Positions 1,924 to 23,931 are shown, counted from the first letter of the stretch. The stretch is DNA of 33,389 bases from an uncultured Candidatus Saccharibacteria bacterium (GCA_964518135.1 CAZFEY010000004.1:1-33389), one strand, 5' to 3'. A program made the numbers and translations. The notes: generated by a model not told the origin, from the sequence alone.

Positions 1924-2312
1924 GTCTTGGCAAGCTGGGGGGTTGCTGAGCATATAAGAAATTATGTGCTTGGAGGAAAGTCCGAACATTCATTTCGTTC
2001 ATAAGATCTAAAACGCTCCGGGTAACGCCCGGCCGCTGAAAGGCGAGGGGTGCGAACAGTGACGCCCTAGATACCGAAAGGTATCGGGCGCCCGTCCATC
2101 GCAAGATGGAATAGGGCGAATCTGAAGAGAAATCTTCGGAGTGAAACGGCTAAATCCCTGCGGAATGCAAGAATAACCCAAAAAGTTGCAAGCATGTAAT
2201 TTTTTGGTGAAAAGTAGTTCGCTAGATCCTAAGGGTAACCGAGGGACCAGATAGATAATCGTCGCCCCGCCAATGGCGGGGTACAGAATTCGGCTTATAG
2301 GCTCGCCAAGAC
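1924..2312 (+). ncRNA. rnpB: RNase P RNA
   Basis: Conserved GAGGAAAGTCC and ACAGAATTCGGCTTA motifs; terminal helix GTCTTGGC.../...GCCAAGAC; flanked by promoter and terminator. Confidence 0.96.
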
Positions 2313-2315
2313 ATT

Positions 2316-2343
2316 AAAAACCCGCCCATTTGGGCGGATTTTT
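2316..2343. terminator. Bidirectional terminator between rnpB and rnhA
   Basis: AAAAA-CCCGCCCA-TT-TGGGCGGA-TTTTT hairpin between convergent genes. Confidence 0.75.
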
Positions 2344-2362
2344 AATTTATCTATTAATCTGA

Positions 2363-2806
2363 TTAAAACAATGGATGAGTAATTTTATGACTATCCAATG
2401 CTTCGTTGGCTAACTTATCAGCATCTGTGTTTTTATTGCGAGAAATAAGCTTAAATTTGATTTTTTTGAAATCCAGCCTAAGATTCCATACCTGAATAAA
2501 CAATTGCTGGATTTTTGGTTCAAGAATTTTATACTCTCCATTGAGCTGCTTAACCAACAATTCCGAATCAGATCTTAATTCAATCTCTGTTGATTGAGCA
2601 AGCTTTTTGCCAAACAGGGCTTTAAATTTTTTCATAGCGAAGATTACCGCCTCGTATTCAGCTTCATTATTTGTGAGATTGTTTCCAAAATACTCTGCAT
2701 ACTTTTTAATAATCTCTCCCTTCTCATTGCAAAAAACTATTCCCCCACCGGCAGACCCTGGATTCCCCCTTGATCCACCATCTGTATAAATAATAATTTT
2801 TTTCAC
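2363..2806 (-). CDS. rnhA: Ribonuclease HI family protein
   Basis: YTDGGSRGNPG, TNNEAEY, SDSELLVKQ and N.xAD.LANEALD motifs; the GTG start overlaps the end of the adjacent repeat. Confidence 0.92.
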   Translation of the reverse strand: MKKIIIYTDGGSRGNPGSAGGGIVFCNEKGEIIKKYAEYFGNNLTNNEAEYEAVIFAMKKFKALFGKKLAQSTEIELRSDSELLVKQLNGEYKILEPKIQQLFIQVWNLRLDFKKIKFKLISRNKNTDADKLANEALDSHKITHPLF

Positions 2807-2929
2807 CCCGTTAGAAATCTGTCTTATATAACACTACGTTATTTTCGAACAGACCATTATTTTTAATTTAATCCCCGCTATTATAAGACAGAAAAAATAT
2901 ATTTTTTCTGCTCAAGACTTCTAACGGGG
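2806..2929. mobile_element. MITE-like element, CCCCGTTAG family, copy A
   Basis: CCCCGTTAGAA...TTCTAACGGGG termini, internal hairpins (TCTGTCTTATA/TATAAGACAGA), flanks TTCA/CTCA. Confidence 0.8.
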
Positions 2930-2930
2930 C

Positions 2931-4094
2931 TCATATTTTCGCGAAATACTTAGCAAGACAAACTTTAAATTTTTCCAAGTTTCCTACTTCGATCGAGAAA
3001 CCGGCTGCGGCTGGATGCCCGCCAAAAGTTTTCAATAATTTTTTACAACTGGTCATTGCTTTTACCGCATCTACTCCTTTGGGCATCCTTACGGCTCCAG
3101 CACCCAAACCTTCTTTTTTGTTAAAATCTTTTTGCACTAAAAACGTAGGCTTTTTATATTTTCCGCAAATCCTTGAAGCAACAGATCCTAATAAAGAATA
3201 TTGCCATTTGTTTTTCGACTCAAAAATAATCGGATCTTTTATATTTTTAATAACAAGTCTTTCAACCTCATTAGTAATCTCTTTGACCCTCTTTTGTCGT
3301 TGAATTTTTTGCTTAATTAGACTTTTAGCCAAAGACGTTATGGTCTTTTTACTATCTGATACCAATAAAGAATATATGGCATTTATGTGATTTTTTGCAT
3401 CGCCCGAATTAAGAATAGCGACTATTTTCTGGGCAACTTCTCTTGGTGGCGCAGATTTTAGGCTTTTATCCAATTCAAAAAAGATTTTCAAACTAGGCCT
3501 TGTTGGTGTTTTTAATCCCTGTAAACCCTTTTCGATTATATCTTGATTGTCGTCAGTCTGAATCATCATATCGGCTATTGTCGCCAAAGCTGCAATTTCA
3601 AAAAAATTCCTTTCTTTAATGATTGAGGAATTCTCTCCCAATAACTCAAAAACAAGCTTAAGCGCTAATCCTCCGGCAGCCAATTCCTTAAATCGATACC
3701 TGTCTCCCGGTTGCTTTGGGTCTACTATTATATGGGCCGTTGGCAGTTTGCCCAAAATAATATGATGATCAATAATTATGATCTCAAAGCCCAATTTTCT
3801 GGCAAGCTTTATTTCCTGAAAATTACCAATACCGCAATCTAGCAAAATCAAGAGGGCGGGAGCTTTTGACTTAAGATTATTCACTGCCTGCTCGTTTAAA
3901 CCATGTCTTTCTTTATTCCTGTCTGGAAAATAAACAGCGTCTACCCTACCTCCCAAGGATTCTATACTTTCTTTTGTGATAACGGTGGCTGAAGCTCCAT
4001 CCAAGTCTGAATCTCCGTATAAAATTATCTTCTCGTTGTTTTTAATTGCCCTTTTTATCCTTAGGGCGGCTTTTTTAAGATTTTTTATCGGCAT
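2931..4094 (-). CDS. recJ: RecJ-like single-stranded DNA exonuclease (DHH/DHHA1), short form
   Basis: YGDSDLDG, LLDCG, IIDHH, ATIADM and FGGHPAAAGF motifs; ends without the C-terminal OB region of long RecJ proteins. Confidence 0.82.
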   Translation of the reverse strand: MPIKNLKKAALRIKRAIKNNEKIILYGDSDLDGASATVITKESIESLGGRVDAVYFPDRNKERHGLNEQAVNNLKSKAPALLILLDCGIGNFQEIKLARKLGFEIIIIDHHIILGKLPTAHIIVDPKQPGDRYRFKELAAGGLALKLVFELLGENSSIIKERNFFEIAALATIADMMIQTDDNQDIIEKGLQGLKTPTRPSLKIFFELDKSLKSAPPREVAQKIVAILNSGDAKNHINAIYSLLVSDSKKTITSLAKSLIKQKIQRQKRVKEITNEVERLVIKNIKDPIIFESKNKWQYSLLGSVASRICGKYKKPTFLVQKDFNKKEGLGAGAVRMPKGVDAVKAMTSCKKLLKTFGGHPAAAGFSIEVGNLEKFKVCLAKYFAKI

Positions 4095-9453: not shown

Positions 9454-9525
9454 AATACTTTTTTCTATAATATACTCATTTATACTCGTTAAACGCATTT
9501 AAGCATTTTATAAAGGAGTTGTCAA

Positions 9526-9639
9526 CCCCGTTAGAAGCCATCTGTGGAAATATGTTGATTTAAAGACAATAGCCGTTATGGCGGCTGAACGCCTTATGTC
9601 CTTTGTGTGCGCAACAGCTATCGCGGGATTCTAACGGGG
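9526..9639. mobile_element. MITE-like element, CCCCGTTAG family, copy B
   Basis: CCCCGTTAGAA...TTCTAACGGGG with exact TCAA duplication (9522-9525 and 9640-9643). Confidence 0.82.
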
Positions 9640-23710: not shown

Positions 23711-23931
23711 AGCCCCGCTTCACTTCTAGAAAGTTCTTCTGGAAAAATTCCAGGTGGGCGCTTTAGCCTATCGCCACGGCGACAGAACATTTCAAGCTCC
23801 CAAAAAATTATTTTATCCCAGAATTAACTAGAAATAAGCAGGGCCCCGTTAGAAATTATCATATTCAAACAACAGATAACTTCTAATGAGGCACCGCCCA
23901 CTTGTGACAATACTTCTAACGGGGCAGGGCT
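23711..23931 (-). ncRNA. ssrS: Probable 6S RNA (compact, ~135 nt core) with an inserted element in its 5' stem
   Basis: Closing stem AGCCCTGCTT-ATTTCTAG / CTAGAAGT-G-AAGCGGGGCT; TTCTGG/CCAGAA; AU-rich central bubble; GGGAGCTT/AAGCGCCC followed by ACCTG as in Bacillota-type 6S RNAs; own promoter and terminator. Confidence 0.7.
23844..23924. mobile_element. MITE-like element, CCCCGTTAG family, copy D
   Basis: CCCCGTTAGAA...TTCTAACGGGG with CAGGG duplicated (23839-23843 and 23925-23929). Confidence 0.82.

Follow-up and report, generated by a model that had tools for sequence, protein, structure and literature searches.

The stretch of DNA analysed here (the window) comprises 33,389 nucleotides from an uncultured Candidatus Saccharibacteria bacterium (GCA_964518135.1 CAZFEY010000004.1:1-33389), an ultrasmall inhabitant of groundwater. 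On its minus strand a recJ-like gene for a DHH/DHHA1 phosphoesterase is followed by rnhA, which encodes an RNase HI-like protein, and between these two DNA-repair genes lies a non-coding sequence with inverted ends (2806-2929). This sequence is very probably a non-autonomous miniature transposon (MITE, for miniature inverted-repeat transposable element) that was inserted in the stop/start overlap of the two genes. The anatomy of the element, the empty orthologous sites in relatives, the bias of its family towards start codons and one orientation, and the presence of a nuclease-coding element with the same ends are shown by the sequences themselves and are described below.

Read along the minus strand, the junction passes from recJ-like ...GCG AAA ATA TGA G into CCCCGTTAGAAGTCTT...AAGACAGATTTCTAACGGGG and then into TGAAAAAAATTATT. 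The recJ-like open reading frame (ORF) closes at the TGA of the left flank, the element starts 1 base past that TGA, and the sequence directly 3' of the element is TGAAAAAAATTATTATTTATACAGATGGTGGA. At its two ends the element carries an 11-nt inverted repeat without mismatches (CCCCGTTAGAA/TTCTAACGGGG), with about 16 positions paired in the RNA fold. Between the ends lie an internal repeat of their motif (TAGCGGGG) and two palindromes, an inner A/T one and GTCTGT..ACAGA. The flanking TGAG (left) and TGAA (right) are read as a 4-bp target duplication with one mismatch, because 79 of the 105 evaluable copies of the family carry an exact 4-bp duplication (here and below, counts of family copies from public genomes are among the matches listed). 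The initial annotation had placed the element at 2802-2933 and had described the duplication as 'TGA plus a stray G'. An element and a duplication do exist there, but the element itself occupies 2806-2929, the wider span adding both flanking 4-mers, and the duplication is the 4-bp TGAA, of which the left copy has drifted to TGAG.

The end 9-mer taken alone is weakly above chance in the window, with 9 matches at <=1 mismatch against a shuffle mean of 3.6, a number attained by 2/100 shuffles. Paired inverted ends with duplications are not due to chance; 18 such pairs occur in the genome, a number that includes nested pairs and different ways of pairing the ends of a single element. The element thus combines inverted ends, a target duplication, short length without a transposase gene, several copies, an empty orthologous site and, in the same genome, a nuclease-coding element with identical ends, and on its structure it is classed as a bacterial MITE.

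Table 1. Coordinates of the genes, the element with its parts, and related elements discussed in the text (window positions unless a contig is named)
Feature	Position	Strand	Details
rnhA, RNase HI-like	2363..2806	minus	147 aa, GTG start; Pfam RNase_H 7e-12, RVT_3 1e-20
Right target-duplication copy TGAA	2802..2805	minus	TG finishes GTG, AA opens codon 2
MITE, 'type A' (probable)	2806..2929	minus	124 bp, non-coding, inverted ends
Right inverted end AGATTTCTAACGGGG	2806..2821	minus	final G (2806) is base 1 of rnhA GTG
Mini-ORF, 17 codons	2881..2934	minus	reads into element; opened by stranded original ATG (2932-2934)
Inner palindrome CAGAAAAAA-TATA-TTTTTTCTG	2889..2910	minus	self-match
Left inverted end CCCCGTTAGAAGTCTT	2914..2929	minus	holds TAG, frame AT GAx CCC CGT TAG
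Left target-duplication copy, presently TGAG	2930..2933	minus	TGA (2931-2933) is recJ-like stop codon
recJ-like DHH/DHHA1 phosphoesterase gene	2931..4094	minus	387 aa; Pfam DHH 6.7e-15, DHHA1 3.3e-9
Nuclease-coding element	C6:21597-21879		283 bp, same ends as MITE, TATG duplication
GIY-YIG element of other end family, genome G001	L037 (G001:C38) 2056-2365		at rnhA start codon, TGAA duplication

The start codon of rnhA is split between the element and its flank. The in-frame codons 5' of the GTG are GGG, AAC, TCT, ATT, CAG and AGA and then TAA (6 codons before), and from this TAA to codon 58 of the rnhA frame there is no in-frame ATG, GTG or TTG apart from the GTG itself. Because no alternative exists before codon 58 and the catalytic YTDGG of RNase H begins at codon 7, the GTG is the sole canonical start that gives a functional RNase H. 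The product is full length, 74-78% identical to family relatives and free of stops. Its residue 1 aligns with the orthologue's ATG at the loci of 25 of 29 relatives, while in the remaining ones rnhA starts with GTG (one relative) or begins 4-6 codons farther upstream (three). The gene therefore appears to retain its full N-terminus through GTG AAA AAA ATT.

Empty sites and repeated insertion at rnhA

Excision of the element together with one TGAA restores ATATGAAAAAAATT. The rnhA locus was compared in 29 relatives of the same order by locating both genes in each, and the recJ-like gene and rnhA overlap by 4 nt in 14 of them (13 ATGA, 1 GTGA). In these overlapping relatives rnhA opens ATG AAA AAR AT, matching the excision product, and the proposal of the initial annotation that the insertion went into an ancestral ATGA overlap is supported by this uninterrupted overlap at the orthologous junction. 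Elsewhere the arrangement varies, with longer overlaps in 3/29 relatives (-8, -26, -26), gaps of 10-19 nt in 5/29, gaps of 52 and 59 nt in two, gaps of ~242 nt in 2/29 (one with a masked run of N), and recJ distant or not found at the rnhA locus in 4/29. At one locus with a long gap (L008, G004:C22; rnhA-recJ gap 243 nt), an extra copy of ~60 nt of the rnhA 5' end lies upstream of the real start, with a masked N run behind it, which may reflect an assembly problem or another insertion.

The same start codon is occupied in other genomes. A genome of the same genus (G001) lacks the window element and carries at the same nucleotide a different GIY-YIG-coding element, with the junction ...ggtATGAA, ...GGGGG, TGAAAAAAATC and the ends CCCCCACACC/GGTGTGGGGG. 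In a genome from another family (G037) the rnhA start bears a separate type-A copy, for which the duplication is 5 bp long (TGAAA), and in a further public genome (L078) a type-A copy precedes an rnhA that is 70% identical. Judged from these sequences, the rnhA start has been struck separately in at least three other genomes.

The occupied junction is found, without differences, in contigs from three groundwater samples (X1, X3, X5). The contigs show no join across the element; those at 2825-2914 and 2825-2916 stem from other repeat copies.

Copies in this genome and in public genomes

The genome (758,684 bp in 67 contigs, 38% G+C) was searched for further copies by BLAST and by an end-pair search. 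It contains six type-A copies of 124-132 bp; the four others found by BLAST are 69-80% identical to the window copy, and the sixth, at ssb, was found by its ends. At all six the right junction reads G then TGAA, a GTG is rebuilt and an ORF follows. The proteins encoded 3' of the copies are RNase H, Cpn10/GroES, a GFO/IDH/MocA oxidoreductase, a MurG-type GT28 protein, sigma-70 (region 1.1) and SSB, the corresponding genes being rnhA, groES, the oxidoreductase gene, murG, rpoD and ssb, and for Cpn10, GT28 and SSB the Pfam match begins at residue 2-3 of the protein. The right duplication copy is TGAA in 6/6, whereas the left copy has drifted in 3/6 (TGAG, GAAG, AAAA), as expected if selection acts on the right copy only. 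Just 5' of the murG copy (G000:C22, ~60 nt upstream of 8141), and adjoining a masked stretch, lies a ~20-nt direct repeat (cttgttttcttgcgaaaataa, twice).

Public genomes were scanned with a flank-agnostic right-end pattern, GACAGACTTCTAACGGGG, which gave at least 117 stretches, nearly all of them from Patescibacteria, and at least 122 distinct right junctions. That the element's terminal G supplies the rnhA start, as the initial annotation had claimed, is supported: the same arrangement, G then TG, is seen at 6/6 type-A copies in this genome and at 79 of the 122 public junctions, while 11 junctions keep T then ATG. By flank, the listed 122 junctions divide into TGAA (64), TATG (11), TGGA (8), TTGA (5), TAAA (5), TTCA (5), TGAG (4), CATA (3) and others (17). 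The reverse-complement flanks (TTCA, CATA, CTCA) total 9, which puts orientation at ~90 forward to 9 reverse, or ~10:1.

A start codon is followed by an ORF of >=80 codons at 67 of the 105 evaluable junctions, by one of 40-79 codons at 5 and by fewer than 40 codons at 11. A stricter test asked for a start codon in the reconstructed empty site, an ORF of >=80 codons and an in-frame stop <=30 codons upstream; it is passed by 58/105 junctions in the forward orientation and by 4 more in reverse, whereas in this genome 4.1% of TGAA sites overall and 0.14% of positions taken at random pass it. At the other end of the element, all 92 aligned copies have TAG as their positions 7-9.

Some housekeeping targets recur in different genomes, namely ssb (four public copies in addition to the genome's own) and pgk (in MITE and nuclease forms). 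Further recurrent targets, named by eye from N-termini, are secE-, nusA-, pyrG-, pilC- and type IV secretion system (T4SS) ATPase-like starts. Within the copies, alignment column 89 falls in a conserved internal CTGAAAT, which has the target word TGAA in it. The base in this column is A for 47 of 48 copies flanked by TGAA and T for 6 of 10 flanked by TATG. A guide-like role for this motif was considered, since column 89 associates with the duplication class (0.30 bits), but TGGA-flanked copies retain CTGAAAT and no simple pairing rule holds.

The GIY-YIG nuclease element and known systems

The nuclease-coding element on contig C6 has a single ORF of 86 aa, which matches Pfam GIY-YIG (PF01541) at 2.4e-15 and 57 bits against a 22.6-bit cut-off. 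The stop codon of this ORF is a TAA within the right end, and the TATG duplication leaves the ATG of the host gene intact. Of the 80 closest public homologues of the nuclease, 68 are bounded by CC(C)(C)GTTA...TAACGG(G)(G), at lengths of 272-324 bp. A sister nuclease subfamily ends ...CTAACGGGA (L249, L253, L256 and ~17 other loci); where it has a TGAA duplication, ...GGGA is followed by TGAA and the codon rebuilt is ATG, not GTG. The initial annotation had called insertion at start codons 'self-repairing', a claim that holds and that this A-ending subfamily and the invariant left-end TAG extend.

A mechanism can be proposed on this basis. The MITE would have landed where the recJ-like stop and the rnhA start share the 4 nt ATGA, doubling TGAA as it did so. 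Of the two TGAA copies, the left would preserve the upstream TGA, and the right together with the terminal G would yield the rnhA start. The ends would confer tolerance in three ways: the terminal G (A in the sister subfamily) would restore GTG (or ATG), the left TAG would shut an upstream gene in the frame that TGA leaves open, and the right TAA would end the nuclease ORF. Among the frames that follow ...ATGAA + CCCCGTTAG, the first would be shut by the duplication TGA (the recJ-like case) and the second by the left-end TAG, and in the third the stranded ATG would open a short ORF of unremarkable length. The family would be Patescibacteria-wide, with an autonomous form of ~280 bp that encodes a GIY-YIG nuclease only.

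The genome contains seven small GIY-YIG genes and one pseudogene. Two of those with other ends sit on start codons, one (CCCGGTAG...) at an L10-like gene and one (CCCCCACACC...) at a glyA-like gene, the latter with a TGAA duplication and a G then TG junction (both genes named by eye). Three others (G000:C7:16416-16637, C39:276-488 and C1:17290-17502) adjoin or lie between tRNA genes or tRNA-like duplicated segments and are without CCCCGTTAG ends. The left 45 nt of the MITE resemble the inverted right end of the nuclease element (75.6% over 45 nt), a likeness too weak and too palindromic for interpretation.

We infer that the 86-aa GIY-YIG protein mobilises the element family. It is tentatively suggested, as a proposal that falls a little short of an even chance, that the ~280-bp elements, in which CCCCGTTAG ends enclose the gene for an ~86-aa GIY-YIG protein and nothing else, represent an enzymatically new class of autonomous transposon, and that they and their MITEs actively seek start codons (RTGAA, TATG) and -35 boxes (TTGACA), rebuild these signals with their ends and in this way colonise the essential genes of minimal genomes. 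To our knowledge, they would be the smallest autonomous transposons. Full-text searches of the literature gave no description of GIY-YIG elements with inverted ends or of start-codon-seeking MITEs.

Correia elements (CREE) of Neisseria are MITEs of ~100-150 bp with a TA duplication, their own 26-bp ends and DDE-type transposases. The element described here instead has a TGAA duplication on a start codon and CCCCGTTAG ends; it differs further in that its end base becomes part of a codon and its same-ended partner encodes a GIY-YIG nuclease. Elements of the IS200/IS605 type have neither inverted ends nor a duplication, and membership of that type was ruled out because the element has both. Like the bacterial MITEs treated in a review (Delihas 2011, PMC3184786), it is short and present in many copies, with inverted ends, a short duplication, co-transcription with its neighbours and a hairpin. 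Mycobacterial interspersed repetitive units (MIRU) have tetranucleotide direct repeats, lie inside polycistrons and have empty orthologous sites (Supply 1997, per PMC3184786). They share with the element a position between polycistron genes and ends that overlap the signals of adjacent genes, but are GC-rich, 40-100 bp long and often tandem, with no autonomous partner reported in the passage on them (PMC3184786); the two are presumably unrelated by lineage. The REP2 repeats of Neisseria and the upstream inverted repeats of Borrelia resemble the element in being fused to a translational start and supplying the start codon. They contribute an entire ATG along with a promoter and a ribosome-binding site, whereas the element contributes one base and no promoter consensus, and neither they nor MIRU are described in these passages with a GIY-YIG partner or one-base codon repair (PMC3184786).

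The nuclease itself can be compared with two kinds of GIY-YIG protein. Among small stand-alone proteins it matches UPF0213, its nearest solved relative (PDB 1zg2, E 6e-5), and SLX1 weakly; those entries are not described as mobile, whereas the nuclease gene here is bounded by inverted repeats and target duplications. It shares its catalytic domain with GIY-YIG homing endonucleases, although its match to NCBIfam TIGR01453 (group I intron endonuclease), at 25 bits, stays below the cut-off of 56 bits. Unlike those enzymes it lacks a DNA-binding domain, and homing into a homologous allele does not fit because the insertion sites are unrelated genes that share ~5 nt (RTGAA).

If the preferred interpretation is right, a transposon can live in the start codons of such essential genes as rnhA, ssb, groES, rpoD and murG, in a 0.76-Mb genome with hardly any spare DNA, carrying the bases that mend the damage of its own insertion. 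Gene callers will misplace starts or give odd GTG starts at such junctions, and operon junctions gain structured 128-nt spacers, with a possible change in the stoichiometry of the two products. Should it be true that the GIY-YIG protein mobilises the family, it would represent a transposase class for which the insertion-sequence classifications in use have no place, and a compact system for insertion at chosen sequences.

Target choice and probable translation of the rebuilt start

The base before an exact TGAA duplication is A in 41/45 copies and G in 4/45, never T or C, while before TGAA genome-wide A makes up 27% and T is commonest at 41%. Of these 45 exact-TGAA copies, 42 open an ORF of >=40 codons. 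The null against which this is set is a 5-nt preference with all within-gene insertions purged, built on rough gene calls from a single genome; under it, 44% of this genome's tolerable [AG]TGAA sites open such an ORF (binomial p 4e-12). This excess, together with the position of the TATG and TGGA classes on start codons and the orientation bias, argues for more than passive filtering. Active targeting of start codons is given about even odds. TTGA-flanked copies in the genome lie within TTGAC[AT] in 5/5 cases, with TAnnnT 16-17 nt downstream in 4/5, compared with 7% and 1.4%, respectively, among all TTGA sites, and the family apparently also lands in -35 boxes, leaving them intact.

Several points weigh against the interpretation of the element as a start-seeking, nuclease-mobilised transposon with a functional rebuilt codon. 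It is from the integrity of rnhA alone that use of its GTG in vivo would be deduced, and in the predicted fold the GUG stands at the foot of a -39.9 kcal/mol stem, where initiation could be hindered. A start codon is missing at 22/105 evaluable junctions, members of other subfamilies that share these ends occupy TTGA, CAGGG or TCCA, and a start with an ORF of >=40 codons is found at just 7 of 14 near-identical (>=95%) copies, a small and underpowered sample; the bias could instead arise from retention of surviving insertions. A single nuclease-coding copy in this genome has these exact ends, and we know of no GIY-YIG protein that acts as a transposase. A weak further point is that no empty-site contig was found in four metagenome runs, where the search covered contigs only, from which rare variants are dropped.

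The most serious of the alternatives is that the family has a short-motif preference only ([A/G]TGAA, also TTGAC) without start targeting. In a genome that is ~89% coding, purging of genic insertions would then leave a build-up of survivors at promoters and start codons, rendered harmless there by their G-ending termini. This account is a plausible one, though we judge it appreciably less probable than its negation. Beyond RTGAA the target sites resemble ordinary gene starts (no position exceeds 0.26 bits relative to ordinary RTGAA starts), of the ATGAA sites outside genes 38% coincide with predicted starts as it is, young copies lie at clear starts only in the 7/14 just mentioned, and the TTGA-flanked copies in -35-like TTGAC[AT] also suit a short motif with selection. 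However, 42/45 against an expectation of 44% is a two-fold excess, the 11 TATG and 8 TGGA duplications also lie on start codons despite their different 4-mers, and an orientation of ~90:9 is not explained by symmetric G-ending termini. That the sequence is no insertion at all, but arose in assembly or is an intergenic RNA element passed on by vertical descent, can practically be dismissed. A stable fold speaks for it and nothing more; set against it are the empty orthologous sites, the copies with duplications at unrelated genes, the identical occupied contigs in three samples, and a search of Rfam with nothing at threshold (best score 25.1 bits against 55). Decay of rnhA, by inactivation or a start elsewhere, is very improbable. 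GTG starts are weaker than ATG starts, and this one is enclosed in the predicted stem, but the 147-aa ORF is intact and closely similar to its relatives, five other essential-type genes of the genome share the junction type, and no other canonical start precedes codon 58.

The element RNA is predicted to fold into a rod-like structure (-39.9 kcal/mol, z -4.4), with the UGA 1 nt before the stem and the GUG at the last pair. A spacer of ~20 nt is reported to nearly abolish termination-reinitiation coupling (Huber et al. 2023, PMC10666635), and on that result the 128-nt spacer should abolish termination-reinitiation at this junction, which favours the uncoupling of the two genes proposed in the initial annotation. 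Coupling by unmasking is equally possible, because in the predicted fold a single stem has UGA at one foot and GUG at the other. The absence of a Shine-Dalgarno-like 4-mer before the rnhA GTG is unremarkable, since only ~13% of roughly called starts have one.

This geometry bears on the idea that the copy has been co-opted and that its hairpin governs rnhA translation, either by coupling (ribosomes that terminate at UGA open the stem and thereby expose the GUG) or by throttling. Such co-option is somewhat unlikely. The placement of UGA and GUG about the stem agrees with it, as do the strong one-orientation bias of insertions and the scarcity of Shine-Dalgarno-like starts, by which start choice probably depends on structure. 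The palindromes are conserved with compensatory changes, the inner one having, for example, AT 50 and TA 30 at one pair across 92 copies, but conserved palindromes are equally expected from transposase recognition. Selection on the sense RNA should appear as an excess of G:U over A:C half-compensations, and no G:U excess is found in the ends (10 vs 43), the inner stem (15 vs 26) or the second hairpin (79 vs 89), which leaves no sign that the hairpins are selected as RNA. A consensus scan of 2806-2929 gave no sigma-70-like promoter and no intrinsic terminator, and a promoter/terminator cassette was dropped for that reason. A functional mini-ORF was likewise rejected, as the orphan-ATG frame has its median stop at nt 52, compared with nt 53 in another frame; the 17-codon mini-ORF is probably a by-product.

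Other insertions were noted in passing. In the window, two tandem copies of a subfamily with CCCCGTTAG ends and a TCAA duplication lie at 9526-9639 and from 9644 to ~9711, the second being truncated; on the minus strand their right flank is TTGACA, with TTAAAT 17 nt on, 5' of a gene starting at 9498. At 23844-23924, between two convergent genes and not at a start codon, is an element of 81 bp that shares these ends and is flanked by a duplication of 5 bp, CAGGG. Finally, a 105-bp copy (G000:C8:10522-10626) lies in the last codons of a gene, where the TAG of its end now serves as the stop of that gene and the C-terminus is altered from ..MKPK to ..MKPR.

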